64,000 nucleotides of DNA from Candidatus Woesearchaeota archaeon (GTDB taxonomy: Archaea; Nanobdellota; Nanobdellia; Woesearchaeales; UBA11576), in assembly GCA_018668595.1 (NCBI GenBank), contig JABJCP010000043.1, forward strand, positions 36,490 through 100,489. The letters run 5' to 3'. Under the pieces are notes generated by a model. That model saw only the letters and a program-made list of their open reading frames with translations. It made no database searches and was not told where the DNA came from. Position 1 is the first letter of the stretch. The number at the start of each line of letters is the position of its first letter. Position numbers and translations under genes: made by a program. Shown in pieces: positions 10,198-44,454 of this stretch.

Positions 10198-10278
10198 AAA
10201 ATCTTAAAACAGAAGTTTATATATAAATTTACTCATTTAAGCAACACAAACAAATAACATAAAAAACAAAAAAAGTAA

Positions 10279-11457: not shown

Positions 11458-11519
11458 ATATGCTGCTAAAATTTATTAAGTTTATAAATTATTTTGTTAT
11501 GATTTGAAATAATAAAATT

Positions 11520-13179: not shown

Positions 13180-15975
13180 TTATAATTCTAATTTGTTTTC
13201 TAAACTTCTCTTAATATTCACTAAACTTATAATTTTATCTACAACAGAGCAATCTCCTTGATAAAGTTTATTAAGTAAATAATGTCCAGCACTATTTTTT
13301 TTAAAACCACAAAAATAATTTACCAATTTATGAATTGTTCCTTCTCTAATTGATGGACGATCGACTTTTTCGAGATTAAATTCAAATAATTCTCCAGAAC
13401 ATTTATTTTTTTCTTGAGCTTTACGCGATTTATCATATGCTTTAAATTTTTTTAGTAATTGTTTATTTTCATTAGTTACAATACCAAAAAATTTTTCCAT
13501 CATCGCTTCTAAATTATATTCATAACTAATTAAATCTCCTTTTTTTATTTGTTGCTCAGCCATTATTGAAATATATCTTTGTCGTGCGCCTAAAGCATAT
13601 TTATCATAATCTTTTCTTGCTTCTCGTTCATAAGTTAATTCTTCTCGTCGAATTTTTCCTAAACGCAACTGGTTCGCTTTTTTTGCCACATATTCAAGTC
13701 CTACGCGCAAATCACCTTTTAATACAACTTTATCTAAAAAAGATTCATATAATCCTTTTTCAAACTTGCATCGTTCTCCTTTATTAGAATTGTAATCTGC
13801 AATTCCTTGCATCACGAATTGATTTCCTATATTTCCTGCAAAACTTCCTTTATTACCTGACAAAAATACTCCTTCACCTACCACAGAACATAAACCTTTT
13901 GATTCTAGACGACACAATAAATTTTTATCAACATTATCTGATAAAATAAAAGCTTCTTGATTTATATTAATAACATTTCCTTTAAGTAATTTTATTAAAT
14001 CATTCATAACACTAGTAGCCTTACATCTATATTCATCTAAATAATCTCCCTGCATACCTAAACTAAATTCTGCTGCGAATGTTTTTTTACCAATATTTGG
14101 TTTTGCTAATCTAAAAAGCGGATATTCTGCAATTGATTCAAGAGTTCTCATCAATCTTGCTTTTTCTTTAGGATCTCCAGTTAAGAAAGCTTGATTATAT
14201 ATCTTTTTAATATTGTCATCTCGTTCAAGCATATCTTTAAATATACTTGCAAAGGGAAATAGTTCAACCCATACTCCTTTTCTCACTCCTTTTTTTGCGT
14301 CGAGGTTTACATATTTTTTAATCCTTGCAGTAAAATAATCAATCGAGCAAAAATCATCAAAAGTTATTTCATTTTTCTTTGTTCCTAATCCTTTTCTAAC
14401 TTGATCACCCAATCGAATTTTAAGTGAAATTATTTCATCCTTAGGGTATGTATTTTTGTGATCCCAATACCAATTAACCCAATAATCTTCACATAATGTT
14501 TTTTTTGCGGTTGTATCTATTCTTGCAGGTGATGAATGTAATGCTTTTGATTTTAAAATATGTTCATACTTAAGTTGTTCACCAATCATCCAAGATTTCA
14601 TCGAATCTTGTGCTGCATAATATAAAACTTGAAACGCTGCTTCTTTATTTCCTTTTTCTGCCAATGCTGTTTGCACTACAAGTTCGTCATGTGTTAAAGT
14701 TTTTTTAGATTTAATTCCCAGCACATCTTCTAATACAGTGTCTAATTTATTATTGAAATTTTTCATGTAATGTTGAGAATAAGGAGATGGATCAATATCT
14801 AATCTACCTTTCAAAATTATTCGTTTAATAAATCCTCCTGCTGCTTGCACTTCAAGTAATGGCTTAGTTCCTCCCACTCCCACTTTAAAATTCCCAGTAA
14901 GACTTTCGGCTTTATCGTAATCGAATTTTAATTGATTATGCCCATAACAAAAAACAGGTTCTATTTCAGAATATAATGCATTTAATTTCTCGACCAACTC
15001 ATGTTGATCGCAAACATGAATTATTTTAACTTTACGTTTATCAGTATCATCACCAGGAACTGCTACTTCTATTTCATTCATTCCACAATCAAGAGTTGTG
15101 ATTAAAAAATTTTCACCGCTATCTAAACTAATCACTGATGCAGCAGTTAGTCTTTCATTTTTGTTTTTATCAAGAATTTCTTCTATTCCTCTTAGATAAT
15201 CTCTTCTATCCATCCACTTTAAATTTTCTTTATTAAATGTTTCATTGTATGCATCGACTAAATTCAAAAATCTAGAACATAATTTTTCCTCAGGTTCATC
15301 ACGTAATTCTTCTTGTACTCTAACACGTTTCCATTCTTGTGTTTCAAAATCAAGTGCTACACCTTTTACATTTACTAAAATTTTATCAGAAATTAATTCA
15401 TTAGTGAATTCAAAACCGCCATCTCCATCTTCAATCTCTTTTACAATACCAAATGGAAATCCTGCTTGTAATCTTGCTTGTCTTGTTGGACTATTATATC
15501 TATCTCGAATAAATTCTTGTGAAAGAAAAAAGTTTTGTTCATTTTTTTCTAAAAATGGCACTACACAGTGATATGTTTTATACTTTCCTCGTCCAAAAGG
15601 TCCATCTAAGCGCAAGCGCACATCAATGTTTCGCAAAAAATTGTCAATAGCTGTTGATTTTTCTTTTAATTCAGAATGTTTTTTTGTGCCTTCATTAAGC
15701 TTTCCCAGGTCTACTAATGTTTTAAATAATTCTTCTGTATATTGTTCTTGAATAATTTTTTTATAATTTTCAAAACTTTCAAATATTGTTTCTTCTCGTC
15801 TATGTTTTAGTAGCTTGGTAGGAATTTTGTGTTCTATTTTAATTAATTCAAATTTAGGATTTTTCATTTCTCCTGTTTCAGAATCTATTTCCCACAGACA
15901 TGCGTCTACAAGAGATTCTAGTCTTCCTACTAGTGACTGTTTTGGTTTAAGAAATGTCAACCCCTTAGTTACCAT
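13180..15975 (-). CDS. Family-B DNA polymerase-like protein with intact 3'-5' exonuclease motifs and degenerate or absent polymerase motifs
   Basis: 931 aa. Exo I LDFET, Exo II NQLKFDYD (YGHNxxxFD) and Exo III YYAAQD are present in PolB order and spacing. No SLYPS (motif A), no KxxxNSxYG (motif B) and no YGDTDS (motif C) could be found. The only loose candidates are FDDFCSIDYF and ILSDNVD. Confidence 0.55.
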   Translation of the reverse strand: MVTKGLTFLKPKQSLVGRLESLVDACLWEIDSETGEMKNPKFELIKIEHKIPTKLLKHRREETIFESFENYKKIIQEQYTEELFKTLVDLGKLNEGTKKHSELKEKSTAIDNFLRNIDVRLRLDGPFGRGKYKTYHCVVPFLEKNEQNFFLSQEFIRDRYNSPTRQARLQAGFPFGIVKEIEDGDGGFEFTNELISDKILVNVKGVALDFETQEWKRVRVQEELRDEPEEKLCSRFLNLVDAYNETFNKENLKWMDRRDYLRGIEEILDKNKNERLTAASVISLDSGENFLITTLDCGMNEIEVAVPGDDTDKRKVKIIHVCDQHELVEKLNALYSEIEPVFCYGHNQLKFDYDKAESLTGNFKVGVGGTKPLLEVQAAGGFIKRIILKGRLDIDPSPYSQHYMKNFNNKLDTVLEDVLGIKSKKTLTHDELVVQTALAEKGNKEAAFQVLYYAAQDSMKSWMIGEQLKYEHILKSKALHSSPARIDTTAKKTLCEDYWVNWYWDHKNTYPKDEIISLKIRLGDQVRKGLGTKKNEITFDDFCSIDYFTARIKKYVNLDAKKGVRKGVWVELFPFASIFKDMLERDDNIKKIYNQAFLTGDPKEKARLMRTLESIAEYPLFRLAKPNIGKKTFAAEFSLGMQGDYLDEYRCKATSVMNDLIKLLKGNVININQEAFILSDNVDKNLLCRLESKGLCSVVGEGVFLSGNKGSFAGNIGNQFVMQGIADYNSNKGERCKFEKGLYESFLDKVVLKGDLRVGLEYVAKKANQLRLGKIRREELTYEREARKDYDKYALGARQRYISIMAEQQIKKGDLISYEYNLEAMMEKFFGIVTNENKQLLKKFKAYDKSRKAQEKNKCSGELFEFNLEKVDRPSIREGTIHKLVNYFCGFKKNSAGHYLLNKLYQGDCSVVDKIISLVNIKRSLENKLEL

Positions 15976-16069: not shown

Positions 16070-18535
16070 ATGCAAGAAATTCCACCACACGAAAAAATAT
16101 CTCATTTTTTCCAAAATTTGTATCTTGCAGAGCCATTTCTTTCAGATTATGAATTGTTTGATTCTAATTTATTAATAAAAAAATTAAAAGAAAAAAATGG
16201 ATTATCGGGTCTTTCTACTAAATCCAAAACTAATCCTATGGAAATATTAGAGCAAGGATTTGAAAAAATAAAAAAAGGAAAAGGATTTGGTTCAATTGAA
16301 AAATATAGATGGTATAATAATTACATGTTAAAAGAAATCAGTTTGCCAGATGTTTACAATCCATTTTACGATAAAATCCCTATTTTTGTAAATGGTCTTT
16401 GTGTTACTCAACATAATAAACCAAGAAAAGAAGGAATGGATCCTTATTCTAATACACACAGATTTTCAACATTACTAATTCAAAGCCTAGAACAGTTATT
16501 CCCTCCTGATTTTTTAGAACGATTTTTATTTGTATATGTACAACCAGTTCCTTTTGTTCAAAAAATAACAAAACACAAAGGAAAATTATGTTTAGAAGAT
16601 ATTATCAGACATCCAATAGAACATCATGTTAATAAAAATTTAGCTGAAAAAAAGAAACAAGGCTTTGGTACTTTAATAAAATCAGACGATTCGTCATACA
16701 AAATTGCTAATGCGCATTATGATCCAAAACTTTTTAATTTTAATATGTTTAAAATAGCAAATGCTCAAAATCCTGACTCGAAAACTAGAGAAGCTATGAA
16801 AAGTGGACGATCATTCAACAAATTTTTAGAAATTAAACAAAATGAAATTTATTTCAACAAACAAATAATGGCAATCAAATTTGCTAGATTTCTCGACGCT
16901 ATTTATCCTAATTTAATTAAACTTCATAATGAAATAGGGTTAAATGGTCTACCTATTTATATGGAAAATACTTCTGACAGTGCAAAAATATTGCAATACG
17001 CAACAAAATATTCAAAAACACATATTCTTAATTGTAAGGATAAACCTAATGATAAAACTTCTTTAAGATATTTTAATATAGGTGATGGAATTCTCAATAA
17101 TACTCCTGAACGTATTCCTATTGAAGGAATTGCACACAGCAGCGCGCTCAATAAATTATTTGGTTTTATGCAGGCAATATATTCGAATGTATCAAAAAAT
17201 TATAAACGAAAATCTGTAAAAATAAAAAAACCTGCTAGATTTGAAGTTATAACCTATGATTCAGGTCATCAATTCCCTTGGCTTCTTTTAGAACAAGGTA
17301 CAAAAGGTAAACATCCTAATCTTCATGATTTAGCCAGACAAGTTCTGACAACTCAAGAGCAAAAATTAATTAAAGATTTTGCAGAAGAAAATAGATTAGG
17401 ATTTACTAGAGTAGAACCTGCAATCACCACTCTTTTAAAAACTGATTATTCAATCAATATAAGTCATCCTGCACTTTCAAAATTAAATGGTCGATGGTTT
17501 TCAGAAATTCTTGGGAAAAAAGTTTTAACTCCTGATAAACTACATAGTCCTGATTACAAAATTAATTTTTTTGATATGCCGTCTGTACATCCCGCAGATC
17601 ATAAAGTAACTAGTGACTTTAGAGGTTCTGAATTTTCTCAACCTACTTGCGAATATATAAGCCAAGACTGGCACAACCCAGATCAACTTACAGGTTTTGG
17701 TTGTTCAATTACTAAACTCATAGGTAAGATTGATAGAAATGTGAAAAAGAAACTTATTTTAGAGCAACTAGCACAAGAACCTGAAGAAGTAAGAGATGAA
17801 TTTTTCAAAAATATGACTCCCGATCTAGAATCTATTCCTGCAATTAGAGGTACTGCAATCCATACTTTATTTGCGCATCCAATGAATGAATTAGTTCATT
17901 ATAATACATTAGAATTTGCAGACATTGATCCAGTTCCTTCAGATGTATACACAGAAACAACTTTTTTTCATAAACTAAAATTACAAGCTAGAAATTCAAT
18001 TCAAGAATTTACAGTTTCTATGCATCCTGATTTATATCTGTTTCTAAAAAGAGGCACCGATGAATATGATTTAATTATTGGCGATGTGAAAACTAATCCT
18101 AGAATGGTTGTTCCCGAACATAAATATACTCAGCAAACTGGTTTTTATGGTTGGTTTATTAAACACATTGTAGAAGAAGAGTTAAGAGTTAAAATTCACA
18201 ATATTTATACATTTTTATACAAAACCAATTTTTTTGAGCGTGGCGACGAGCCACAAATAAAATATCCTTCATCATTATTTCGCCCACCAGTTCTTTCAAA
18301 AATAATATTGCATAAACCTGATGATTCAATAATCCAAACCTTGCCTTACATGTTAGCAAACATAATGGAAGAAAAACAAATGTTAAAAGAAGATAAAAAG
18401 TTTTTTGGGCATTATATTAAACATTGTGAAAAAAAGAAATATTGTAAAAAATGTTTTCCTGATTCTAGTCTTGTTTGCAAAAGATTAAGAAATTTAGAAA
18501 GTGAAAATAAAAATATAAATAAATATTTTAATTAA
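16070..18535 (+). CDS. Large hypothetical protein with C-terminal RecB/Cas4-like PD-(D/E)xK nuclease domain and terminal 4-Cys cluster
   Basis: 821 aa. C-terminal HPDLY ... GDVKT ... EHKYTQQTGFY matches the PD, (D/E)xK and QxxxY motifs of RecB-family nucleases. Ends with CEKKKYCKKCFPDSSLVC (C-x5-C-x2-C-x8-C). No Walker motifs. Confidence 0.55.
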   Translation: MQEIPPHEKISHFFQNLYLAEPFLSDYELFDSNLLIKKLKEKNGLSGLSTKSKTNPMEILEQGFEKIKKGKGFGSIEKYRWYNNYMLKEISLPDVYNPFYDKIPIFVNGLCVTQHNKPRKEGMDPYSNTHRFSTLLIQSLEQLFPPDFLERFLFVYVQPVPFVQKITKHKGKLCLEDIIRHPIEHHVNKNLAEKKKQGFGTLIKSDDSSYKIANAHYDPKLFNFNMFKIANAQNPDSKTREAMKSGRSFNKFLEIKQNEIYFNKQIMAIKFARFLDAIYPNLIKLHNEIGLNGLPIYMENTSDSAKILQYATKYSKTHILNCKDKPNDKTSLRYFNIGDGILNNTPERIPIEGIAHSSALNKLFGFMQAIYSNVSKNYKRKSVKIKKPARFEVITYDSGHQFPWLLLEQGTKGKHPNLHDLARQVLTTQEQKLIKDFAEENRLGFTRVEPAITTLLKTDYSINISHPALSKLNGRWFSEILGKKVLTPDKLHSPDYKINFFDMPSVHPADHKVTSDFRGSEFSQPTCEYISQDWHNPDQLTGFGCSITKLIGKIDRNVKKKLILEQLAQEPEEVRDEFFKNMTPDLESIPAIRGTAIHTLFAHPMNELVHYNTLEFADIDPVPSDVYTETTFFHKLKLQARNSIQEFTVSMHPDLYLFLKRGTDEYDLIIGDVKTNPRMVVPEHKYTQQTGFYGWFIKHIVEEELRVKIHNIYTFLYKTNFFERGDEPQIKYPSSLFRPPVLSKIILHKPDDSIIQTLPYMLANIMEEKQMLKEDKKFFGHYIKHCEKKKYCKKCFPDSSLVCKRLRNLESENKNINKYFN

Positions 18536-29090: not shown

Positions 29091-30047
29091 ATGACTTCAG
29101 ATATATGGACTGAAAAATATAGGCCAAAGGTTTTTGCAGATGTTTTAGGTCAAGATGAAATTGTAAAACGTGTAGAGGCTTTTGTTAATAAAAAAAGCAT
29201 GCCTCATTTATTATTTTCAGGTCCTGCAGGAGTAGGTAAAACATCTCTTGCATTGGTAACTGTTAAAGCTTTATTTGGAGATAGTTGGAGAAGTAATTTT
29301 CTTGAACTTAATGCTTCTGATGAGCGAGGAATTGATGTTGTTAGAAATAAAGTAAAAGATTTTGCTCGAACTCGAGCTATTGGCGATGTACCTTTTAAAA
29401 TAATTTATCTTGACGAGTGTGATGCTTTAACTAAAGAAGCTCAACAAGCTCTAAGAAGAACCATGGAAAATTATACTCAAACTTGTAGATTTGTTTTAAG
29501 TTGTAATTATTCTTCAAAGATTATAGATCCTATTCAAAGTCGTTGCGCGATTTTTCGTTTTAAACTTTTACCAAAACAAGATCTTATTAAAGTAATTAAT
29601 TCAATTGCAGAAAAAGAAAATATTAACATTGATGACTCTGCAAAAGAAGCTTTGTTTAATATTTGTGATGGTGATTGTCGTCGTGCTGAAAATATTTTAC
29701 AATCTAGTGCAGTCATCACAGATCATATTACGGATGAAATCATTTATTCTTTAGCATCTGTTGCTCGACCAAAAGAAATTAAAGAAATAATTCAATTAGC
29801 ATTAAATAATAAATTTATTGATAGTAGAAAAAAACTTCTGGATATTATGCTAGAATATGGTTTATCAGGATTAGATATCATTAAACAAATTCAAAAAGAA
29901 GTTCCAAAAATAGATGCTGAAAACAAAAAGAAAATGGAATTAATTGAATTTTGTGGTGAAGCAGAGTTTAGAATGACTGAAGGTTCTGATGAATATGTAC
30001 AACTAGAAGCTCTTCTTGCAAAAATTGTTTTAGTGGGTTATAAATAA
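29091..30047 (+). CDS. rfcS: Replication factor C small subunit
   Basis: GPAGVGKT Walker A, DECD Walker B, SRC motif (QSRCAIFRF) in the clamp-loader arrangement. 318 aa. Confidence 0.9.
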   Translation: MTSDIWTEKYRPKVFADVLGQDEIVKRVEAFVNKKSMPHLLFSGPAGVGKTSLALVTVKALFGDSWRSNFLELNASDERGIDVVRNKVKDFARTRAIGDVPFKIIYLDECDALTKEAQQALRRTMENYTQTCRFVLSCNYSSKIIDPIQSRCAIFRFKLLPKQDLIKVINSIAEKENINIDDSAKEALFNICDGDCRRAENILQSSAVITDHITDEIIYSLASVARPKEIKEIIQLALNNKFIDSRKKLLDIMLEYGLSGLDIIKQIQKEVPKIDAENKKKMELIEFCGEAEFRMTEGSDEYVQLEALLAKIVLVGYK

Positions 30048-30330: not shown

Positions 30331-31695
30331 ATGGATGAAAAAAACGAGGTGCAATTAGACTCTATTGAATCTAATTTATTAGCCGAGCTTGAAAAAAAGA
30401 GCAGTGAACTTTCTCAAAACAATTCATTCTTAGCAGAAAAACTCAAAGAAACAGAATGTACTATTTCTTCATTCAATACTGAACTTGCAAAACTTAAAAA
30501 TGTTAAAGACGCGTTAACCCAAAAAGATATTATTATTACAAAATTAAATAAGAAAATAGAAATTATGTCTTATGCGCAAAAACAACTCGAGTTTGATGCT
30601 CTTGATTTAAATGAACAGGTAACAAAAAAATCAGAATCACTTGATTTTTCTGAATCAAAACTTGTTGAGCGTAATAAAATTATTGAAGACCTAAAGAGCA
30701 AAATTAGTATTCTTTCGTTTGCACAAAAACAACTTGAATCTGAAGTTCTTGATATAAAATCTCAATTAGATAAATCTGTTGCAAATCTTGAGTTTAATAA
30801 AGATGAAATTGTAAACAAAGAATTGGAAGTTACTGAACTTAGCGGACAAATAAAGCACCAATCAGATGCAATTAATCGACTAGAGTCTGAAAGTGCACAT
30901 TTTAGAAATCATGTTGAATTATTAACATCTAAATTACATATTAAAGAAGAGGATTTTAATAAATTTGCTGATGATCTTGCAGAGTCTAGAAAAAAAGTTG
31001 CTTTACTAAATACTACATTAATAAAAAAATCTCAGGAGTTTGAAGCAAAAGAAACAAATTTAACTCAAACATTAAATCAAACAAAAGAAAATCAAGAAGT
31101 TTATGTTAAACGGTTAATTTCTCAATACACTTTAAAAATTATTTCTCTTAAAAATCAGATGGAAAAAATGGACAAACTAATATCTATTAAAAATGGAACT
31201 ATTCAAAATCAAAAAGTTAAAGCTAATAACATAATGTCTGATTTGAATTCTAGGTTCAAAGATCTGATGAGTTCCGAAGATGCAGCAACACTTAATGGAT
31301 TTGAATCTGAAATTACCAGTTCTGATTCTAATGATTTTGAATATGAACTAGATTCAGACTCAATAAATAGTTCAGACGTAAAAGAAGACTCAATACCTGC
31401 CGCAAACTTAGACACAAACAGCAGTTCATTTGATTCGTTTAAACAAGAACTAGTATATGAAGATCAGTCAGAAGAAGCAGCAGTGGAAGAAGAAGAATTA
31501 CTTGTTGATCCATACCAAGAAATTCAAGATCCTTATTCATCTGCTCCAATGCCAAACATTGACGATATTGTACCTATGATTCAAATTGCAATCCAACATG
31601 GAGATCAAGAAATGAGCATAGTTAAGTCTTTAACTAATTCAGGTATTCCAAAAAAAGCAGTTGATTTAGCATTCGAAAAAATAAGACAAGAATAA
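30331..31695 (+). CDS. Long coiled-coil protein with acidic C-terminus
   Basis: Heptad-rich Q/E/K/L composition across about 300 aa, acidic S/D/E tail. 454 aa. Confidence 0.45.
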   Translation: MDEKNEVQLDSIESNLLAELEKKSSELSQNNSFLAEKLKETECTISSFNTELAKLKNVKDALTQKDIIITKLNKKIEIMSYAQKQLEFDALDLNEQVTKKSESLDFSESKLVERNKIIEDLKSKISILSFAQKQLESEVLDIKSQLDKSVANLEFNKDEIVNKELEVTELSGQIKHQSDAINRLESESAHFRNHVELLTSKLHIKEEDFNKFADDLAESRKKVALLNTTLIKKSQEFEAKETNLTQTLNQTKENQEVYVKRLISQYTLKIISLKNQMEKMDKLISIKNGTIQNQKVKANNIMSDLNSRFKDLMSSEDAATLNGFESEITSSDSNDFEYELDSDSINSSDVKEDSIPAANLDTNSSSFDSFKQELVYEDQSEEAAVEEEELLVDPYQEIQDPYSSAPMPNIDDIVPMIQIAIQHGDQEMSIVKSLTNSGIPKKAVDLAFEKIRQE

Positions 31696-31781: not shown

Positions 31782-32774
31782 TTATCCACCAACATGCTGC
31801 ACTAACAAAGATGTTGTTACACTATTTTTATAATCATATCCAAGATCAAGTCTTACTATTTTCTTAAAGTCACTTGGAGATGTTACTGTTTGTGTACAAC
31901 TTATTTCTCGTGCTCCATTCAGAAGAATTGCATCTCCTTCTACAACACCATTACTTGCTGCTACATTTTGAAGTCCGCTACAAGTTAGTGTATCTGAAAT
32001 TCCTGTGTCAACTTTCACATGTACTTTATTTCTTTTTTGGAATGTTTCTTCACAAGTAGATCCAGATTCGTATAGTTTTCCAGAACCTACATGTTCAATC
32101 TTAAACAAAAAGCTGACTTTAGTTGAGCTTGCAACTGATTCTCTAAAACTAGATACTTTTACTGGCGATCCTGAATTATCAACTGTTTTTTCTTCAGTTA
32201 CTGTACAAAATGTATTTTCTTCTCCACTTACTCCAATCAAGTCTTCAAGAACACACAAATCTGTATTTACTATAGATCCATATTTATAACATACATCTGC
32301 TTTTAGGTTATAAGTCACTTGTCCTGCTAATTCAGTTTGGTGAGAGAATACTGAACCTGATGAAGGGAAATCTAATGTTGCAATTCCTCCAGGTATTCTT
32401 CCACCTTCTGTATCAATCTTTACTCCTCTTAGAGGGTCTGGACTAAACTTTTCTAAATCTGATGTTCCAACGCCAAAGTCTGCAGGATCAAATCCTGTTA
32501 GCATTACTTTTACATCATTTATATCATCAATATTATGACTTCCTTTATTTTCAATTCTAATACTTATTCCAAATGGTTGTTCTTTATCTAGAATTTTTTC
32601 TGGAGGTGCTCCGGGAACAAAGCTTATGGATAATGCTTCTGTTGTTTGTTCAAACATGCTTCCACTTCCTGAAGCTTGCGCATCTGCATTTTGATTTTGA
32701 CCACATCCTACTGCAAATAACATAGATGATATGACCAAAAAGATTAGTATTTTTTTCATGTTTACAGCCTCCAA
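31782..32774 (-). CDS. Secreted lipoprotein, paralog family member 3
   Basis: Signal peptide plus VGCG lipobox. Shares CYKYG...C...D and C-terminal LGYDYKNS motifs with 32899-33840 and 34048-35121. Confidence 0.55.
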   Translation of the reverse strand: MEAVNMKKILIFLVISSMLFAVGCGQNQNADAQASGSGSMFEQTTEALSISFVPGAPPEKILDKEQPFGISIRIENKGSHNIDDINDVKVMLTGFDPADFGVGTSDLEKFSPDPLRGVKIDTEGGRIPGGIATLDFPSSGSVFSHQTELAGQVTYNLKADVCYKYGSIVNTDLCVLEDLIGVSGEENTFCTVTEEKTVDNSGSPVKVSSFRESVASSTKVSFLFKIEHVGSGKLYESGSTCEETFQKRNKVHVKVDTGISDTLTCSGLQNVAASNGVVEGDAILLNGAREISCTQTVTSPSDFKKIVRLDLGYDYKNSVTTSLLVQHVGG

Positions 32775-32898
32775 AAATTTTTTAATAAATTTAATTTTTC
32801 ATTTTTGATATTTTAAATGTTTAATTTAAATATTTAATTTCGACATTTTTAAACATTTAATTATTGATCTTAAAACTTAGTTATCAAAACGTAGTTAT

Positions 32899-33840
32899 CT
32901 ATTCGTCAATACTTCTTATATCTACTTGTTGACTTATACTATTTTTATATCCATACTCGAGTTCAATATTTAATGTGGTTTGATATGCTCCTTGTTGTTG
33001 ACTATGTGGAAATTTACAAAAAATTGTTGCTTGTCCATTCACAAGTCTTAGTTTATCATGATCTGGTTTACATTCTCCAAATGCTTGTCCTTCTCCAAGT
33101 GTTGGAACATAATATCTTATTTTATTTAATTCTTTATAGTCTAATAAATGAGGACAACTACCAATTGAATTAGCGTCAAATGCCACGCCTCCTCCTGCAT
33201 TTGAAATTTGTATTCTAAAATAAGTTGCTTTAGGTGTTGTTTCTTGTTCAATAGATGATACTGCTATTGGTGCTCCTTGACTTCCAGGAGATGCACCATT
33301 AGGGTTACATACTTTATCACTTAATTTATCCGTCGGGTTTGTATCAAGACATACTACTGGATTTGCTCTTGTTTTATATTTATAACAAGCAGTTAATAAA
33401 AATGTTGGATTATATGTTTGAGCTCCTAGCGGAAGATGTAATGCATTTGATTCAAATTCAACTATTTCCATACCACCCTCGGGATTAAACTGAGATTTAC
33501 CTTCTAAATTAAAGACTTGTTGATATCCACCATTATTTATATTTACAATACTTTGATCATATCCTGTTAAATGAAGCGACGCTGCAGGTAAATCATATGT
33601 TCCTGCATTTTTTACTTTAATCATAAAGAGTAATGGTGCTGTAGTATATACTTGCGCAGGTGGTTGATCTGCTAAGAATTCTAATGTTAGTCCTTCTGTT
33701 CCTGAAGGAGTGTATAAACCTATTCCATTTGGTTGATCTGGATTTCCTTTTTGCATTCCCAAACTTCCACAACCCGACAATATTAAAATTGAGAATACTA
33801 CAAGTATGAGAATTAAATGTTTTTTTATGGTTTCATTCAT
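32899..33840 (-). CDS. Secreted lipoprotein, paralog family member 2
   Basis: Signal peptide plus LSGCG lipobox. ACYKYKTRANPVVCLD and LEYGYKNS motifs. Confidence 0.55.
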   Translation of the reverse strand: MNETIKKHLILILVVFSILILSGCGSLGMQKGNPDQPNGIGLYTPSGTEGLTLEFLADQPPAQVYTTAPLLFMIKVKNAGTYDLPAASLHLTGYDQSIVNINNGGYQQVFNLEGKSQFNPEGGMEIVEFESNALHLPLGAQTYNPTFLLTACYKYKTRANPVVCLDTNPTDKLSDKVCNPNGASPGSQGAPIAVSSIEQETTPKATYFRIQISNAGGGVAFDANSIGSCPHLLDYKELNKIRYYVPTLGEGQAFGECKPDHDKLRLVNGQATIFCKFPHSQQQGAYQTTLNIELEYGYKNSISQQVDIRSIDE

Positions 33841-33993
33841 TGTTACTCCTCTTTTTTGATAATAAACACTTATTTTAATTTATATACTTTTCGGTTATTT
33901 TAATTTATTTTATTAAAATATATTATAAACCAATAAATTTGCGCTGAATAGCTAAATGATGGATAAATAATATTTAAACAGGAATAATCCATA

Positions 33994-34038
33994 TTTGAAG
34001 TTTTAAAGTTTAAAAACTTAAAAAATTAAAAGTTCAAA
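33994..34038. terminator. Imperfect 13-nt inverted repeat around a perfect 14-nt palindrome AAGTTTAAAAACTT, immediately 3' of gene 34048-35121
   Basis: tttgaagttttaa ... ttaaaagttcaaa, with one mismatch. T-rich on the transcribed strand after the hairpin. Confidence 0.35.
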
Positions 34039-34047
34039 GGTTTCAAA

Positions 34048-35121
34048 CTATATATTTACATCATCACTTGGAACTGATTTCATTTCAGATTCTAAATTTT
34101 GACACCCTACTTTATCAAGTTCTCCTGATGGCGGAATTATATTTAATTTCTGATGGATTTTTGATTTAAAATTATATTTCAAATTTATTGTCAATGGTGT
34201 TGTAAACGTACCTTCAGTACTAGTTAATTCTGTTTGACATCTTAACATACCCACTTTTGATTTTAGTTCTACTACATTTGAGGGTAACCCTGAACTTGTC
34301 AGACTTTTACAATTAAGTTTTTGTCCCCTTAATTCAACATCTGCATAAATTCTATTTTGTTTTCCAGGATCACTACAACTCAATTTACTTTCTGAAAAAT
34401 ACACTTCTCCGTCTTGAACTTGTGATAATTCTATTGTTACCATTGCTTGTAATTTATTTTTATAAGGAACTATATTTGCATCAACGCGATTAATAGCTAT
34501 TGGTGCACCTTGTCCTCCTGAAAAAGATAAGTTTTGTTGTTCACAAATTTTTTCTATTTCTTCTCGATTAATATTATCCTTAGCAGTTGGATCTAAGCAA
34601 ACATCTACTCCGAATTTTGTTTCGTAATCATAACAAGATATAGCAGTTATTGTTTTAATAATATTATTTTTACTGCCTTTTAATTGATCAAAACAACGAA
34701 CCATTATAGGAAACAGGATAATATCTTCTTCGCCTTCTGATAAAAATTCGGATCTTCCTAAGACTTCAAAATTTTTTGTTAATTTATTTCCTTCTACTAA
34801 AAAAATATTTGAATCTGCATTAAGAATTATTTCCCCTTTTCCTGTGTCAATATCATATGCACCATAATTTTTCACTCTAATGCCGATATCAAATTTGTCA
34901 CCTATGAGAACTGTTTCTGGAGGCATGCTTTCAACAAATTCAAGCATTATTCCTTGTATTCCTTGATATGGATTATGAAGTTGTAAATTACCTGTGCTTT
35001 GTCCACCACCCCATGCTGAAAAACGTGATCCTCCTGAACAACCAGCTAAAGTCATCAAAAATATGAGTATGATAATTATCTGAGTTATAAAAATTAAGTT
35101 TTTTTGTTTATGTGTTTTCAT
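34048..35121 (-). CDS. Secreted lipoprotein, paralog family member 1
   Basis: Signal peptide plus LAGCSGG lipobox. ISCYDYETKFGVDVCLDP and LKYNFKSK motifs. Confidence 0.55.
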   Translation of the reverse strand: MKTHKQKNLIFITQIIIILIFLMTLAGCSGGSRFSAWGGGQSTGNLQLHNPYQGIQGIMLEFVESMPPETVLIGDKFDIGIRVKNYGAYDIDTGKGEIILNADSNIFLVEGNKLTKNFEVLGRSEFLSEGEEDIILFPIMVRCFDQLKGSKNNIIKTITAISCYDYETKFGVDVCLDPTAKDNINREEIEKICEQQNLSFSGGQGAPIAINRVDANIVPYKNKLQAMVTIELSQVQDGEVYFSESKLSCSDPGKQNRIYADVELRGQKLNCKSLTSSGLPSNVVELKSKVGMLRCQTELTSTEGTFTTPLTINLKYNFKSKIHQKLNIIPPSGELDKVGCQNLESEMKSVPSDDVNI

Positions 35122-35135
35122 TTTTTTAAAGTACG

Positions 35136-35187
35136 TTTAATAAATATTTTTAATAAACAATTTTAATAAATACTTTAAATAAATGCA
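35136..35187. repeat. Four tandem 13-nt repeats TTTAATAAAYAWT in the promoter region of lipoprotein gene 34048-35121
   Basis: tttaataaatatt / tttaataaacaat / tttaataaatact / ttaaataaatgca, read directly. Confidence 0.6.
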
Positions 35188-35308
35188 TTTAAAGTAGGAT
35201 ATACTACAATAGTCGCATAAATTATATTACTCGTAAATTATATTATTGTAAGTGATATTATTGTAAAGTATAAAAGTTTTTAGTTAATTCATCGAACATA
35301 TTATTTAA

Positions 35309-37021
35309 TTATGCTGGTTTACCTACCATAGATCCCATTGAACCTGTTGATTCTGATTGGCTTTCGCTCTCTGAACTTGCAGGTAATGTCACGGTTGTTG
35401 AACTAGTTTTTTTTGTTTTTTGTTTTGCACACCAAACATAATCTTTTTTACTATCATCATTATCTTTAGGTCGTACATCTAATTTGTATTCTTTTTGAGT
35501 TCCATATTCATATTCTATTTCTGCTAAAATTAAAACATCATTAGGTTCGTTAGGAAGACGTAAAACTTTTTTTGGATCTAAAATTTCTAAGTGACAAGAA
35601 GGCATTGATTTTTGAAGAGTATGTTCTAATTCATAAAATTCATATTTTTCAGGATTATTCAAATACAACACATTTCTTCCATTTTCTTCTTTTGCAGTCC
35701 ATCCTGAACAAAAATCAACTTGTACACCCCCTATCTGATTAGGTTTTGCAACACCAAATCCGTCTGGAATTACAACTTTTAGTGCATGTACTGTATCTAC
35801 TGTTCCTTCGACCATGTTTTCTACACTTACTTGTATTTTTAATTTTTTAGATGCTATTTGATTATTTTGAGATCCAATACCTCCAAAGCTTCCTGTTCCT
35901 GTATCAATTCCTATTAAAGGCATTTTTTCTGTTTGTATTATTAATTTAATTGGAGCTTTATCTGATTCAGATATTCCGTCGAGGTGCGCCACTTCAGGAT
36001 ACATATCTTTCAATGCTGCAATTACTTCATTTTCATTATCTAAAGTTAATTCTTTATCTCGAGCATATACTTTGAGTTTTTCTTCTAAAAAGTTTTTTTC
36101 AATATATGCATTTTGTAATTCTGCTCTTGTTACAAATCCTTCTGATAGTGCAGTAAAATATACTAAATATGCTTCTGGACAAGTAATATTTTGAGGATAG
36201 CAAGTTATTTCTTCGTCAAAATTTGATGCTGCAGTTATTACTTCAGGAAATACAGGTGAAACTGTTGCGTCGTCTAATCTTTGAAAAGTTCCTGGTGATT
36301 TTTTAAAAATTGATCTTCTAACCACGTGACAAGTAACCATCGTTACTATATCTTCATCATATCCAAATCCATGAACTCTTGATCTAAACTCGATAGATTC
36401 GCGAGAATCAATATCTATAGGAGAGGGTATAAAATATTTTGCGGGATTTGGTGTCCAAGGATTTAACCATTCAACTCCTACAAATTCTTTTGTTTTTGTT
36501 TGTTTTCCTTCAACATAATCTCCTTTGTATATTTGTTCATTTTTTTTCCAACTGAGTTTAAAATTATCAATTAATTTTGATAAAGCGTTTTTACCCCCAT
36601 ACGTTACATCATCTGCTGCAGCTCCAACATCTCCTCCTTGATATTTTGCAATTGCAGCCTGTGCAATTGTAGGGCCTGTAAAATAAAATGCTAATCCGAA
36701 TATTGCAATAATAATTAATGCTTTGAAAAATACACCCATCCAATCTTTAGGACTTTTTTGATCTGGTGAAGGTTCTTCTATAACTACTTTAGGTTCGGGT
36801 TGGGATGATTGAGTAGAATTAATTGGTTCAGCAGAAAATGGCGATTGTTGAACTGGTTGTTGAACTGGTTGTTGAGGATTTGGTTGTTGAAAAGAATTAC
36901 CTAAATTAATAGATCCTTGTGAATTTACAGAGGGATTAATGTTAGGAGAAAGAGGGTTTATTGGAGCTAATCCTTTCTTCCCTAAATTATTAAACTTAAT
37001 ATCATCCACCTCTTTTTTCAA
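35309..37021 (-). CDS. Type-II membrane protein with Q/P-rich cytoplasmic N-terminus and large ectodomain
   Basis: QQPVQQPVQQ low-complexity region, then a single TM (ALIIIAIFGLAFYF), then about 450 aa of extracytoplasmic domain with an S/E/T-rich tail. Confidence 0.5.
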   Translation of the reverse strand: MKKEVDDIKFNNLGKKGLAPINPLSPNINPSVNSQGSINLGNSFQQPNPQQPVQQPVQQSPFSAEPINSTQSSQPEPKVVIEEPSPDQKSPKDWMGVFFKALIIIAIFGLAFYFTGPTIAQAAIAKYQGGDVGAAADDVTYGGKNALSKLIDNFKLSWKKNEQIYKGDYVEGKQTKTKEFVGVEWLNPWTPNPAKYFIPSPIDIDSRESIEFRSRVHGFGYDEDIVTMVTCHVVRRSIFKKSPGTFQRLDDATVSPVFPEVITAASNFDEEITCYPQNITCPEAYLVYFTALSEGFVTRAELQNAYIEKNFLEEKLKVYARDKELTLDNENEVIAALKDMYPEVAHLDGISESDKAPIKLIIQTEKMPLIGIDTGTGSFGGIGSQNNQIASKKLKIQVSVENMVEGTVDTVHALKVVIPDGFGVAKPNQIGGVQVDFCSGWTAKEENGRNVLYLNNPEKYEFYELEHTLQKSMPSCHLEILDPKKVLRLPNEPNDVLILAEIEYEYGTQKEYKLDVRPKDNDDSKKDYVWCAKQKTKKTSSTTVTLPASSESESQSESTGSMGSMVGKPA

Positions 37022-37152
37022 AAAATTAAAAGTAAAAAAATATAAAATAACGAAAAAAATACATTAAAACTAATACATTAATAATACATTAAAAATACAT
37101 TAATTGGATTAAAACATTGAGCTAATAAATTAAATCAACCAACATTATAAAA

Positions 37153-38403
37153 TCAATTATCTCTATATACTTCTAATTCAACAATTTGCAATATTTCGTC
37201 AGGAATTATTTTTATCGCATTATTTCCTTCAATTAAATAATCATTGATCTTCTTTTTGTAAACTCTATCTCTTTGATATATATTTGTTTCAACACCATTA
37301 ATATTTATTCTACCTTCTTTTTGTTCATTGTCATCAACAAATGTTATTTTTAGATATATATCATCAGAATCATCTTCAACATCATCAAATTCATCTTCGT
37401 CAAGATCAAAAAAGTATACTGGCTGTACAATTTCTTTTAGTTCACTCTTGATTTTTATTAGCTCGACTATGTAATTTCCTTTTTCTGTTTTAAATACTAT
37501 TTGATTTTCACCATTACGCAAAATATCTGGTGCAAACTCTACACCCAATGCATATCCACAATCAGGTATTGCTTCATAAACTAAATGATTATTTACTAGT
37601 GCTTGTAATTTTCCAGTCACTCCTAATTCACACTGAGGTGTGAAAATTAATCGTCCTCTTTTTAGATTATTTTTTTCAGTTGCGCTAACAATAAATATGT
37701 TTTTGCTTTGTTGTTGAGTTATGTCTGTTATGTCTCCCGTGATTTGTAAATTTTCAAGTGTGTGTTTGTTTACTTTCCAAAACTGCCACCCAACTGATTC
37801 TGTAAAAAACTCTAATTTATTTGCTCCTTGAGCTACATATTTTTTTGGAACCACAACAGGATCTGGATTTTCTTTTGTAATTTCTTGATTAAATATATCT
37901 TTTCCATTTAGTGTTATTCGCATATTCCCCTCGTGTATTTTAGATACAAAGGTTAATAACAAATTTTCTGTATGGGTTAAATCTTGAATAACAAATGTGA
38001 ACTCAGCACTTGTATCTGAAAACCAACTTTTTTTAGCAGTCAAGCTGCTTTGAGTATCTAATACTTGAGCATCTTGTGTAGCAAATATTGTTAATGCAGG
38101 AATACTGTGAGTTATTTCTTTAGTTGACAATGAAGTTAATGTTCCTGGATTTTCAAGTAATAATGTTTTATTGGATCCTGAATCAGAATCTGAATCAGAA
38201 TCTGTTGAATTTCCTTCTAGAATTTCTTGCCTCACATGAGGTGGAATAAACAGTAAGTAAAATATGATCAACAGTGCAATTACTGCAACTAATGTTGCGG
38301 CTTTTGTTCCATCTTGTGCTTTTCTGCTTATTAAAAACATAGATTTAGATCTGCAATTAGATCTACAATTAGAATTTCCTGATTTTTTTATTCGTGCCAT
38401 CAA
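37153..38403 (-). CDS. Type-II membrane protein with DSDSDSDSGS linker and large ectodomain
   Basis: Basic N-terminus with an NCRSNCRS repeat, single TM (LVAVIALLIIFYLLF), acidic repeat, about 330-aa ectodomain. Confidence 0.5.
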   Translation of the reverse strand: MMARIKKSGNSNCRSNCRSKSMFLISRKAQDGTKAATLVAVIALLIIFYLLFIPPHVRQEILEGNSTDSDSDSDSGSNKTLLLENPGTLTSLSTKEITHSIPALTIFATQDAQVLDTQSSLTAKKSWFSDTSAEFTFVIQDLTHTENLLLTFVSKIHEGNMRITLNGKDIFNQEITKENPDPVVVPKKYVAQGANKLEFFTESVGWQFWKVNKHTLENLQITGDITDITQQQSKNIFIVSATEKNNLKRGRLIFTPQCELGVTGKLQALVNNHLVYEAIPDCGYALGVEFAPDILRNGENQIVFKTEKGNYIVELIKIKSELKEIVQPVYFFDLDEDEFDDVEDDSDDIYLKITFVDDNEQKEGRININGVETNIYQRDRVYKKKINDYLIEGNNAIKIIPDEILQIVELEVYRDN

Positions 38404-38604: not shown

Positions 38605-39663
38605 ATGAAACTGATATTATTTAAGAAAACTGATGCTAAAGTTGCAGTTGAAAATTTGGATGATTTGTGGTATTTAAGTAGTATTATCGATCCTGGAGAT
38701 ATTGTTGAAGGTAAAACTGAACGAAAAATTAAGATAGGTGAATCAGGAGATCGGAATCAAAAGGTAATTAAAAAAATTGTCTTTCTCAAAATTGCTATTG
38801 AAAATATTGAGTTTCATCAGTATGCATCAATTCTTAGAGTTTCTGGAAAAATTGTTGATGGTCCTGAAGATATTGCAAGAGGATCATATCACACATTTAA
38901 TGTCGAACCTAACACAACCATTAAAATCATAAAAGAAGAATGGTTAAGATTCCAATCTGAAAAATTAAAGGAAGCTTGTGAAAAAGCAACTCCTAAAGTT
39001 CTTATTTGTCTTTTTGATAGAGAAGATTGTTATATTGCAGTCTTAACTAAACAAGGTTATAAAATTCTTACAAATCTTAAAGGCAATGTTGCAAAAAAAC
39101 AAGAAACAAAATCAATGACTACTAATTTTTATACTGAAATTCTTGATTCATTAAAAGAATATGATTCTAGATATTCTGCATCAAACATAATTCTTGCATC
39201 ACCTGCATTTTGGAAAGAGGATTTTTTAAAAAATGTTAAAGATCAAGATATAAAAAAAAAATTTGTTTTAGCCACTGCTAGTAGCGTAGATGAAAAAGCA
39301 ATCAATGAAGTTTTAAAACGTCCTGAAACTCAAACTGTTTTAAAATCTGATCGTGTTGCAAAAGAACTAAAACTTGTAGAACAATTATTAGATGAGATTT
39401 CTAAAGAAGGTCTTGCAGTTTATGGAATTAAAGAAACAAAAACAGCAATTGATGCAGGCGCTGTTAAAATTCTTTTGGTAACAGATCATATAATTCAAAA
39501 ACTTAGACTACAACAAAAATTTAATTCTCTTAATAAATTGATGAAAAATGCAGATAAAGTTGGAGCAGATATTGTAATTATTAGTTCTGATCATGATGCA
39601 GGTAAAAAACTTGATGGTCTTGGTAGTGTTGCTGCAATTCTTAGGTATAAGTTAACTTATTGA
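38605..39663 (+). CDS. pelA: Pelota (Dom34) ribosome-rescue factor
   Basis: N-terminal MKL...DLWYLSSIIDPGDIVEGKT matches the Pelota N-domain. 352 aa with the eRF1-like three-domain length. Confidence 0.75.
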   Translation: MKLILFKKTDAKVAVENLDDLWYLSSIIDPGDIVEGKTERKIKIGESGDRNQKVIKKIVFLKIAIENIEFHQYASILRVSGKIVDGPEDIARGSYHTFNVEPNTTIKIIKEEWLRFQSEKLKEACEKATPKVLICLFDREDCYIAVLTKQGYKILTNLKGNVAKKQETKSMTTNFYTEILDSLKEYDSRYSASNIILASPAFWKEDFLKNVKDQDIKKKFVLATASSVDEKAINEVLKRPETQTVLKSDRVAKELKLVEQLLDEISKEGLAVYGIKETKTAIDAGAVKILLVTDHIIQKLRLQQKFNSLNKLMKNADKVGADIVIISSDHDAGKKLDGLGSVAAILRYKLTY

Positions 39664-42435: not shown

Positions 42436-44454
42436 TTAGCCTGTAGCATGCTTTGCTTTTAATTCTTCTGCTTTTGCATGTTCCTCTGCTTTTTTTGCTT
42501 GCTCAGTAGCTTTTTGTGCTTTTTTCTCGAACTTTAAAACTTGATCTCCTTTTTTAATTTCTGCTTTTATTGTTGCTTGAAATGCTTTTTTGATTCTATG
42601 TATTACATTTTCTCGACTGTGTTTTGTATAACGAAGATCTTTAACTAAAACATTTAAGTGTTTTTTCACGTCTTCAATTCCTTTCTTTAGTTCTTCATAT
42701 GCTGCTTTTACTTTAAACTGAATAGTAATTGATTTTCGAGCTGCAATATTTGTTTCTTTCTCTTCAAGATTTTCTTCTTCAAATATTTTCATTAATTGTT
42801 TTCTTGACTGCGCATTTTGAGTAATTATTGCTCCTGTTTTTGTTATGTCTTTGTATGCTTCAGCCAAACTCGAATAAACTTTATTTAAATATTTTGCAGC
42901 TCTAGCGAGAAAAAATATCTTATTAACAACTCCTGCACTTTCAGTTATTATTGGTTGAATTTCTTTTTGATTAAAATTAACAGCTAATTCTAATATTTTA
43001 ATAACCTCATCAAGAATTAATGATGCGTCATCAGTCAATTGAACTAATATTGCGTCCGGTATCTCTTCTTTGAAATCCTTAAAGTTTTTACGATAAGTTT
43101 TATGTTGTTTAGTTAACTTCAAATCATGTTTTTTGAATTTGTGTTCAAATTTAGTGAACCTATCAGAAACAGCATCTAATTTTTTTTCTACATGAAAAAT
43201 ATCTTTTATTGATTTGTTATGTAATTTCCAAATGCGTTCTAATCTTTTAATTACTAAATCAAGTTTAGTTCTTATTTTTTCAAATTTTTTCTGTTCTTCT
43301 TTAAGTTGATTTATTCGACGATGAACTCCAGACATTTCAGAATTACTATCTTTAGAATGTGATTTGATTTTTTCGAGTTTTTTTTCTTCAGACTTTATCT
43401 CATTTTCTAATGATTCTACTTCTTGATTTGTAACTTTTTTGATATGTTCAAATTTACTTTTCCGTTCTTTTAGCATCCTACATTCTTTTGCAGCTTCGCC
43501 TACAATATCCATCACTTTCAAAATAATATCCATTGCTTTTTCCCTATACTTTTCAGCATATTCTCGATTAGAAATTAAAACATCAAAATCTTTTAACATT
43601 TGTTTTGCAAACTTCAAAAGGGGTTCACGCCTTTCATCATCTAATCCTTCTGGACCAACATGTTCTAATTGTTTTTCTATCCATTTTGCTTTTTGTCCAA
43701 GCACATTAAGAATTTTAATATCTCTTTCTTCTAAAGAAATTTCTCCTTTTTCTAATTGCTCTACAGTTTGACTTATTTTCTTTGCACCAGCAGCCATTGC
43801 TTCTTCGTGAGTTAATAATTCTAAATTTTCTGCTTCTCTTCTAGCAAGTAATCCTTTAAGCCGTTCTGCACCTTTAACCACTTTGTCTTTTGATTTTTCT
43901 TTGATTTTTCCAGCATGTTCAAAATACCTAATCAACTTTCTTGTGCGACGTGGTTTAAATCCTTCTTCTTTACTTAAATTACGCGCAGCATGTGAACCTA
44001 ATCGTTTTAGTTTATTTCTTCGCAACGCTACAAAATATAATCCTGCAAATCCTCCAACAGTAATTGCAAGAGTAACAAAATCAAATGAAACTAAAGAACA
44101 TAAAAACCAAATTACTAAAATTATAGGGAACACTCCTCGTTTAATTCCTCGTCGAATCTTACCAATAACAACAACTGAAAGTGCGACAATAGAAAACCAA
44201 GATAATACATAAAGATTTAAACCATAAAGTATGGCAAAACATAATATAGCAACTACTGTATATGCAGGTATTCCTTTTTTATCTTCTGTTTTTGCAGACA
44301 AAAATATCATCACAACACAAGCAATTACTATAGCCCATAAAATTGAAGAATTAATTAATCCTCCTTCACCAAGTTTTTCTAGTCCTTGCATTATTGAACC
44401 GCCAGGACCAAATATTCCTGCTACTGATCTTTGTAATTCGAGAGGTATTGCCAA
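42436..44454 (-). CDS. Polytopic membrane protein with long K/E-rich coiled-coil C-terminal region
   Basis: At least four TM segments in the first 150 aa, then about 500 aa of heptad-rich sequence. Confidence 0.45.
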   Translation of the reverse strand: MAIPLELQRSVAGIFGPGGSIMQGLEKLGEGGLINSSILWAIVIACVVMIFLSAKTEDKKGIPAYTVVAILCFAILYGLNLYVLSWFSIVALSVVVIGKIRRGIKRGVFPIILVIWFLCSLVSFDFVTLAITVGGFAGLYFVALRRNKLKRLGSHAARNLSKEEGFKPRRTRKLIRYFEHAGKIKEKSKDKVVKGAERLKGLLARREAENLELLTHEEAMAAGAKKISQTVEQLEKGEISLEERDIKILNVLGQKAKWIEKQLEHVGPEGLDDERREPLLKFAKQMLKDFDVLISNREYAEKYREKAMDIILKVMDIVGEAAKECRMLKERKSKFEHIKKVTNQEVESLENEIKSEEKKLEKIKSHSKDSNSEMSGVHRRINQLKEEQKKFEKIRTKLDLVIKRLERIWKLHNKSIKDIFHVEKKLDAVSDRFTKFEHKFKKHDLKLTKQHKTYRKNFKDFKEEIPDAILVQLTDDASLILDEVIKILELAVNFNQKEIQPIITESAGVVNKIFFLARAAKYLNKVYSSLAEAYKDITKTGAIITQNAQSRKQLMKIFEEENLEEKETNIAARKSITIQFKVKAAYEELKKGIEDVKKHLNVLVKDLRYTKHSRENVIHRIKKAFQATIKAEIKKGDQVLKFEKKAQKATEQAKKAEEHAKAEELKAKHATG

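Follow-up and report, generated by a model that had tools for sequence, protein, structure and literature searches.

A positionally fixed five-gene locus of Woesearchaeota encodes a candidate cell-envelope module of beta-sandwich lipoproteins and TM-anchored proteins

Introduction

Few uncultured archaea are as widespread as Woesearchaeota, whose cell envelope and mode of contact with partner cells have, to our knowledge, hardly been described. This study concerns five consecutive genes, here termed g1 to g5, in the metagenome-assembled genome of Candidatus Woesearchaeota archaeon (GenBank assembly GCA_018668595.1, contig JABJCP010000043.1, positions 36,490 to 100,489 of the forward strand), and asks what these genes contribute to such a cell. 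The stretch of DNA analysed, 64,000 nucleotides (nt) long and approximately 28% G+C, is referred to as the window, and positions given for this genome are those of the window. An initial annotation had described positions 31782–38403 as a co-oriented cluster encoding two type-II membrane proteins and three tandem paralogous lipoproteins, and had proposed a cell-envelope or host-attachment apparatus of a small-genome archaeon. All five open reading frames (ORFs) are present where it had placed them, on the minus strand, and the organism does belong to such a lineage. NCBI, IMG and ENA label each of g1–g5 as a 'hypothetical protein', and we found no description of the five-gene cluster in the literature.

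The reading that we favour, plausible although held tentatively, is that g1–g5 constitute one functionally linked, vertically inherited structural or adhesive module of the Woesearchaeota envelope; of the two functions first proposed, a cell-envelope apparatus is therefore the one that our analysis also prefers. The same genomic position is kept in dozens of related species, so that the module is probably a core part of the cell envelope, and it is neither catalytic nor a transporter. By their N-terminal export or anchor signals, all five products are predicted to be exported or membrane-tethered, through lipobox signal peptides in g3–g5 and transmembrane (TM) anchors in g1 and g2, as had been claimed. 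The genes are as follows.

37153..38400, minus strand: g1, 415 aa from ATG 38400 (also 415 aa at NCBI); the TTG at 38403 adds one codon, giving 416 aa
35309..37021, minus strand: g2, 570 aa from a TTG start; 566 aa from GTG 37009 according to NCBI and ENA
34048..35121, minus strand: g3, 357 aa, lipoprotein paralog 1 (ORF, paralogy, profile E=3e-71)
32899..33840, minus strand: g4, 313 aa, lipoprotein paralog 2
31782..32759, minus strand: g5, 325 aa from ATG 32759, lipoprotein paralog 3; 330 aa from a TTG start at 32774

Results

The five genes occupy a fixed position between Pelota and RFC

The block is framed by three genes on the opposite strand.

38605-39663, plus strand: Pelota, divergent from g1
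30331-31695, plus strand: coiled-coil gene, 454 aa, product cytoplasmic, between g5 and RFC
29091-30047, plus strand: RFC small subunit, past the coiled-coil gene

Three relatives, at 54%, 35% and 30% identity, carry the same block between Pelota and RFC. Scanning GTDB species representatives with a g1 profile gave 108 relatives, from which 80 loci were taken, their ORFs called and searched with profiles. The arrangement of Pelota, divergently oriented g1, g2, lipoproteins and RFC recurs in approximately 80 species-level genomes; of 65 informative loci, 63 have Pelota next to g1 and divergent from it, at a median gap of 100 bp, and the downstream flank includes RFC in 36 loci out of 47. Where enough downstream DNA was available (51 loci), three lipoproteins are encoded in 40, two in eight, and four, one and none in a single locus each. 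The initial annotation had asked whether the cluster is conserved or variable among strains, and at species level variability finds no support: the five-gene set is a vertically inherited core block. Other genes of the window have housekeeping functions, among them an intein-containing MCM, PheRS alpha and beta, acetate kinase and PTA, and hence the locus belongs to the core genome.

Median identity to the window's proteins declines from RFC (69%) and Pelota (51%) through g1, the most conserved of the five (39%), and g4 and g5 (both 36%) to g3 (30%) and g2 (29%), a gradient typical of constrained extracytoplasmic structural proteins. The module is single-copy, positionally fixed and conserved moderately but steadily, with the putative lectin g1 its slowest-evolving member, which speaks against a classic adhesin cassette.

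Individual loci depart from this layout through remodelling that is specific to lineages. At locus L052 (11761-15882) an ORF of 1373 aa takes the place of g2 and no lipoproteins were detected downstream, and L084 (14262-18376) has four lipoproteins. L036 (14526-16994) and L050 (15478-18564) encode lipoprotein-2 variants of 822 and 1028 aa, with an FN3-like addition in L036; domain accretion was considered as a clue to function and set aside, the long variants having gained FN3-like or unassigned sequence only. In L004 (6185-10004; 30% identity) the g1–g3 region is broken into seven short ORFs (79–314 aa) with g4 and g5 intact, which could reflect assembly errors, frameshift errors or pseudogenisation. 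The records for L005, L010, L011, L014, L018 and many other GTDB loci are labelled 'uncultured Methanosarcinales archaeon' (TPA assemblies), a label that looks unreliable because these loci are syntenic with, and approximately 50% identical to, those of Woesearchaeota, Pelota and RFC included.

Three ancient lipoprotein paralogs share a six-cysteine signature

In each of g3, g4 and g5 the N-terminus consists of a basic n-region and a hydrophobic h-region that lead up to a lipobox.

35040-35038, minus strand: lipobox Cys28 of g3 (LAGC)
33771-33769, minus strand: lipobox Cys24 of g4 (LSGC)
32705-32703, minus strand: lipobox Cys of g5 (AVGC)

Hence all three possess the signal peptide with n- and h-regions and the invariant +1 Cys by which prokaryotic lipobox lipoproteins are recognised. 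With the AliA/AliB-dependent lipoproteins of archaea they share a signal peptide of the Sec type that closes with [L/V/I/A]-x-[G/A]-C; their mature domains, in contrast, lie outside every described lipoprotein family and are not solute-binding proteins. Both lipoproteins and AliA are reported to be prevalent across DPANN archaea (PMC12462473).

Pairwise identity among the three is 23–28%, g3 having an extension of approximately 25 aa at its C-terminus. A family signature was computed on 126 sequences, comprising the three positions in each of 42 genomes with complete loci. The lipobox Cys occurs in all 126, its column being 99% conserved, and a relaxed lipobox pattern fits 117 of the proteins, the other nine deviating at -3/-2 only. 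Beyond it, six Cys columns are 90–100% conserved, and the signature as a whole (N78-x-G80, C152-Y-x-Y-x-T, C164, C178, G189-x-P191, C257, C275, Y296-x-Y298) is 85–100% conserved, with Y296 at 97% and Y298 at 88%. The paired Cys and C-terminal YxY motifs that the initial annotation had described for the three lipoproteins are real and far beyond chance. For every lipoprotein, the best matches elsewhere sit at the same position, in 42 of 42 complete loci at all three positions. Such position-specific orthogroups imply that the triplication and the gene order predate the sampled radiation; g3–g5 are ancient paralogs. A word-based search with g4 returned 62 homologs, all from metagenome-assembled genomes (MAGs) of Woesearchaeota/Nanoarchaeota, while an exhaustive search with the family profile matched 3583 clusters (50% identity) at E<1e-3. 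The ectodomains are acidic (pI 4.6–5.2).

The lipoproteins are modelled as tandem beta-sandwiches outside known families

The initial annotation had recommended structure prediction followed by a DALI or Foldseek search, with membership of the ABC transporter substrate-binding proteins as one outcome that would overturn its proposal. An AlphaFold2 model of g4, built from a 41-sequence alignment (pLDDT 90.6, pTM 0.80), consists of a signal helix, a low-confidence tether (residues ~25–47) and two beta-sandwiches (residues ~48–165 and ~190–310).

33699-33346, minus strand: first beta-sandwich of g4 (D1; AlphaFold2)
33273-32911, minus strand: second beta-sandwich of g4 (D2; AlphaFold2)

From this model the lipoproteins are predicted to combine a flexible tether of approximately 25 residues with two rigidly coupled Ig/CARDB-like beta-sandwiches. 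Foldseek against PDB returned only generic tandem sandwiches at TM-scores near 0.2, namely the integrin alpha thigh/calf, complement MG domains, transglutaminase C-terminal barrels and the AglB C-terminal domain; against BFVD the best match was a DUF11 protein, accompanied by phage Ig-like proteins. A viral origin was rejected on the grounds that these BFVD matches are generic Ig/DUF11 only and that the locus lies in the core genome.

Substrate-binding proteins were likewise rejected. The g4 model is all-beta except for its signal helix and does not adopt the alpha/beta Venus-flytrap fold, Foldseek yields beta-sandwich proteins only, and the hit in the PDB profile search (E=0.91) covers just residues 3–62. 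A permease or ATPase was not found nearby in the window, and none is conserved near the loci of relatives. The alternative is refuted because AlphaFold2 folds the protein as all-beta tandem sandwiches.

No other family could be assigned. Pfam and NCBIfam gave nothing above threshold for any of g1–g5, nor did Pfam scans, run one by one, of 41 lipoprotein homologs, 41 g1 homologs and 26 g2 orthologs; neither database detected enzyme or ATPase domains in g1–g5 or their orthologs, long variants included, and profile searches against all PDB sequences returned nothing meaningful. The original statements that the cluster encodes no enzyme or ATPase and belongs to no known family agree with these results. 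The CARDB model (PF07705) matched 2 of the 41 lipoprotein homologs weakly, the best (E=0.0028) being below the gathering score. D1 resembles surface domains of the CARDB/DUF11/COG1361 type in its Ig-like sandwich and in a 'PPxxV ... v.v.N.G' pattern like that of CARDB, whereas the six-Cys two-domain unit with CYxYxT / GSQGAP / YGYK is lacking in those domains and specific to the g3–g5 family.

g1 is a predicted signal-anchored protein with three jelly rolls

Two segments of g1 can be distinguished.

38239..38307, minus strand: TM anchor of g1, TKAATLVAVIALLIIFYLLFIPP, a single hydrophobic helix (residues 33-55)
37159..38169, minus strand: ectodomain of g1, with jelly rolls at residues ~79-201, 212-322 and 329-415 (AlphaFold2 secondary structure)

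A short basic N-terminus leads into the TM helix; next come a Ser/Asp/Thr linker, which is acidic and bears N-x-S/T sequons, and then the three jelly rolls; the AlphaFold2 model (pLDDT 85.5) reproduces the helix, a disordered linker and the jelly rolls. The protein would accordingly be held by an uncleaved signal-anchor helix and display three jelly rolls resembling carbohydrate-binding modules (CBMs). The matches returned by Foldseek were GH35 beta-galactosidase C-terminal domains, BcsB, rhamnosidase CBM67, PNGase F and reelin, at probabilities up to 1.0 and low TM-scores of ~0.15–0.24; g1 therefore has a galactose-binding-domain-like jelly-roll fold by Foldseek, at low global TM-scores. Among the 41 g1 orthologs, Pfam matches to CBM-like (7/41) and to CBM_35 (2/41) were all below gathering scores. 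A word-based search recovered 62 homologs, all in Woesearchaeota/Nanoarchaeota MAGs, and profile comparison (hhalign, P=0.16–0.24) gave no homology to g2 or the lipoproteins.

The jelly-roll fold of the three ectodomains is the one that g1 has in common with galactose-binding and CBM domains (GH35 C-terminal, the BcsB CBD, PNGase F). Unlike GH35 beta-galactosidases, BcsB and PNGase F, g1 lacks a catalytic domain and the flavodoxin-like domains of BcsB; its anchor is N-terminal, whereas that of BcsB is C-terminal, g1 is all-beta, and no synthase or glycosyltransferase gene was found at the locus. BcsB combines CBD plus flavodoxin-like domain repeats with a TM anchor at the C-terminus and is linked to BcsA; identity with it was rejected for g1, and a BcsB-, PNGase F- or AglB-like function was rejected because the resemblance is one of generic domain folds only.

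A conserved K-[AG]-Q motif precedes the TM anchor, and a type IV pilin-like protein with a class III prepilin signal was considered. Under the FlaFind rule, the [KR][GA] cleavage site is directly followed by hydrophobic residues. In g1, D/E-A-G-x-A follows K-[AG]-Q ahead of the hydrophobic stretch, and the motif fails the rule because D-A-G comes after Q; ATPase, PilC-like and TFF genes were not found at the locus, and the candidate was rejected.

Two further features of g1 were observed. An ILEGNxT/S sequon follows directly on the conserved 'FIPP...ILEGN' (g1 residues ~56–80, 38220-38240 region) in many orthologs, and its recurrence suggests a conserved N-glycosylation site beside the membrane. 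Longer forms of g1 (559–609 aa compared to ~400) occur at L052, L058, L060, L065, L068, L071, L075, L080 and L084, where g1 lies at about 10001-11700, with an apparent extra domain that has no Pfam match.

g2 is a variable membrane protein and probably a fourth paralog

The product of g2 has a Q/P/S/N-rich cytoplasmic N-terminus of 92 aa, one TM segment and an ectodomain of ~455 aa with six Cys.

36745-36677, minus strand: TM segment of g2, a single predicted helix

A low-complexity cytoplasmic N-terminus, originally ascribed to both membrane proteins, is therefore present in g2 but not in g1. Similarly, g1 and g2 of this genome fit the description as type-II membrane proteins, but it does not extend to g2 orthologs, which have 1–8 predicted TM helices and are usually polytopic. 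The position after g1 is always held in relatives by a single large ORF (517–1148 aa), the N-terminal part of which is unconserved and includes coiled-coil or low-complexity cytoplasmic segments. This is the fastest-evolving member of the module, which explains why a word-based search returned only two homologs; its median identity is reached over short stretches. Judged by sequence, g2 appears to supply a variable membrane and cytoplasmic anchor.

BLASTP of g2 against g4 or g1 was not significant. A profile of 60 g2 ectodomains matched the lipoprotein profile in hhalign with P=0.0013–0.0023, compared with P=0.16–0.31 for controls (g2 against g1, lipoprotein against g1, and g2 against the reversed lipoprotein profile), and relaxing the alignment gave a collinear match of 245 columns that spans both domains. 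Landmarks that align, g2 first, are 'E.vGv'/'GTEGL', 'A.f.f.T.A'/'ACYkYxTxA', 'GPVkI'/'QGAPVAV', 'veN...G.I'/'i.N.g.G.v', two Cys, and 'Y.Y......V.V'/'YGYK.SIS..V.I'. The g2 ectodomain is probably a fourth, divergent paralog of the lipoproteins. An Oxa1/EMC3-like insertase was rejected as an identity for g2: the EMC3/TMCO1 match (1 of 26 orthologs, E=4.5e-4) is sub-threshold and was treated as compositional, and the membrane domain is unconserved, with one helix in this genome.

Gene starts and other features of the window

The start of g5 is more likely ATG 32759 than TTG 32774, given the GGAGG located 9 nt upstream and the 325-aa NCBI product. Shine-Dalgarno-like motifs also precede ATG 38400 of g1 (AGGGGT) and g4 (GAGGAG); no clear motif was found upstream of the starts of g2 and g3. 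Gaps between the module genes measure 124–207 nt. A scan for sigma-70 promoters and terminators gave no more than shuffled sequence, the models being inapplicable to archaea. There is little doubt that an antisense ORF inside g5 (32005-32289, plus strand, 94 aa) is spurious, since dozens of genomes keep the g5 frame.

The coiled-coil protein at 30331-31695 has weak SMC-like matches and a small C-terminal domain. Its gene lies between g5 and RFC only in nearer relatives (L001, L005, L007, L009–L012, L014, L074) and, being absent from L003 for example, is outside the conserved core. Elsewhere in the window, the MCM helicase (57523-60873, plus strand, 1116 aa) is split by an intein with a LAGLIDADG homing endonuclease (Pfam Intein_splicing, LAGLIDADG_3); an ORF of 931 aa (13180-15975, minus strand) has a weak family-B DNA polymerase exonuclease domain as its sole Pfam match (E=8.8e-4); and two large ORFs (16070-18535, plus strand, 821 aa; 42436-44454, minus strand, 672 aa) are essentially without Pfam match. 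Rfam and tRNA scans found no tRNA, rRNA or Rfam family at gathering threshold across the window.

Discussion

If g1–g5 form a structural or adhesive envelope module, g3–g5 would be exported by Sec and then lipid-modified through an AliA/AliB-type pathway, and the six conserved Cys may pair into three disulfides that staple the sandwiches. The lipoproteins, together with g2, would build a hetero-oligomeric pedestal or lattice near the outer face of the membrane, for which the fixed positions of the paralogs suggest a defined stoichiometry. On or beside this pedestal, g1 could use its jelly rolls to bind glycans that belong either to the wall or S-layer of the same cell or to a partner cell, and any connection with the cell interior would have to run through the coiled-coil or low-complexity cytoplasmic tail of g2.

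Several points weigh against this proposal. That the five products interact with one another is something we infer. Co-transcription is plausible and open, given spacers of 124–207 nt and Shine-Dalgarno-like motifs at g1, g4 and g5 only. A strict 1:1:1 complex is not universal, because 10 of 51 genomes have no, one or two lipoproteins and one has four. Carbohydrate binding by g1 is suggested by a fold resemblance at low TM-scores and by sub-threshold Pfam matches, and the homology of g2 to the lipoproteins is probable and not proven, the HHalign probability being only 12–19%. N-glycosylation sequons number 0–2 per protein, unlike in many archaeal S-layer glycoproteins, and a metatranscriptome paper reports separately annotated 'S-layer protein genes' in Woesearchaeota (PMC11606122); as other genes carry that annotation, the main wall layer may be something other than this module.

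Among the rivals, a host-contact apparatus survives best, although we regard it as rather unlikely. It would be the conserved core of an episymbiont–host interface, in which the g1 jelly rolls and the g2 ectodomain recognise the partner and the lipoproteins serve as a base. As DPANN archaea, Woesearchaeota have small genomes and are presumed to be symbionts, the folds of g1 are CBM-like, and long variants of g1 and of the lipoproteins gain beta-sandwich or FN3-like modules; g2, moreover, is by far the most variable member in length, TM number and sequence, as expected of a specificity determinant. Yet it behaves as a single-copy, syntenic core block and not as one that is variable, duplicated or island-like, and diversity-generating elements, repeats and mobile genes were not found at the locus. 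The putative lectin is the most conserved protein of all, though lineages presumably differ in their partners.

It is improbable, in our estimation, that the module is the S-layer itself, with the two-sandwich paralogs tiling a lattice and lipid anchors replacing archaeosortase or a SlaB-type stalk. Ig-like domains do tile S-layers in Haloferax and Nitrosopumilus, and the SlaB-like logic of 'stalk plus canopy' is a possible analogy for the module. SlaA/SlaB of Sulfolobales, csg of Haloferax and NmSLP of Nitrosopumilus are also membrane-anchored beta-sandwich assemblies of the envelope, and the all-beta Ig/CARDB-like architecture, acidic pI, membrane tethering and core, single-copy status of the module fit such a role. 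It differs from these systems in having no sequence or specific fold match to them, in being lipid-anchored and made of five components, and in the small size of its subunits and their few sequons. None of the five proteins or their orthologs matches a Pfam or NCBIfam S-layer model, the subunits are small (~30 kDa) with short tethers, and five gene products would be atypical, reviews speaking of one or two proteins (PMC5744192). The S-layer annotation of other genes in Woesearchaeota transcriptomes (PMC11606122) counts against it too.

An extracytoplasmic assembly or chaperone platform, which would escort or fold S-layer proteins, pili, N-glycans or other exported products in the manner of the periplasmic beta-sandwiches of YidC, EMC, OST or BcsB, strikes us as decidedly doubtful. 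The Foldseek matches of g1 to BcsB and PNGase F and of g4 to AglB/STT3 C-terminal domains point in this direction, as do the polytopic membrane domains of g2 orthologs and the single weak EMC3/TMCO1 match, but the fold matches are generic (TM-scores near 0.2), that match concerns 1 of 26 orthologs below the Pfam cut-off in an unconserved membrane domain with one helix here, and no linked synthase, OST or insertase gene was found. Finally, nutrient capture by the lipoproteins as non-canonical solute- or polymer-binding proteins feeding an unlinked transporter, for which one may cite the many archaeal lipoproteins that are substrate-binding proteins (PMC12462473) and the match of g5 to TIGR01098 (E=0.11, signal-peptide region only), is largely refuted and very improbable given the tandem beta-sandwich fold, which is not that of periplasmic binding proteins, the want of any match to a substrate-binding-protein model and the lack of a conserved permease or ATPase nearby.

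What is new here is the family signature, the composition of four paralogs plus a lectin-like protein, and the fixed genomic position across the order; the Ig/CARDB-like and jelly-roll folds and lipobox anchoring were already known. This is a new protein family built from known folds, with no surprising mechanism demonstrated. Should the products prove to be merely generic surface beta-sandwich proteins, the gain would be one of annotation only, which would nonetheless amount to three or four new Pfam/arCOG families, the lipoprotein family alone comprising ~3,600 clusters at 50% identity.

The module is among the few non-housekeeping blocks that are positionally fixed across the group, and its confident models and predicted surface location make it a tractable target for the envelope biology of uncultured DPANN archaea, of whose cells it is a candidate structural or adhesive layer. 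Its products offer surface targets for antibodies or tags with which Woesearchaeota cells could be visualised and sorted, and a natural test case for archaeal lipoprotein biogenesis beyond haloarchaea. A bolder extension, possible although on balance unlikely, is that the locus encodes a lineage-defining envelope machine of Woesearchaeota, hitherto unrecognised, in which four ancient paralogs, three held by lipid and one by a TM anchor with a cytoplasmic tail, would assemble into a pseudo-symmetric hetero-oligomer that carries a triple-lectin subunit. On these ultrasmall cells it would form a wall-anchoring or partner-contact layer, coupled from surface to cytoplasm via g2. If true, such a machine would represent a new, lipoprotein-based type of archaeal envelope architecture.

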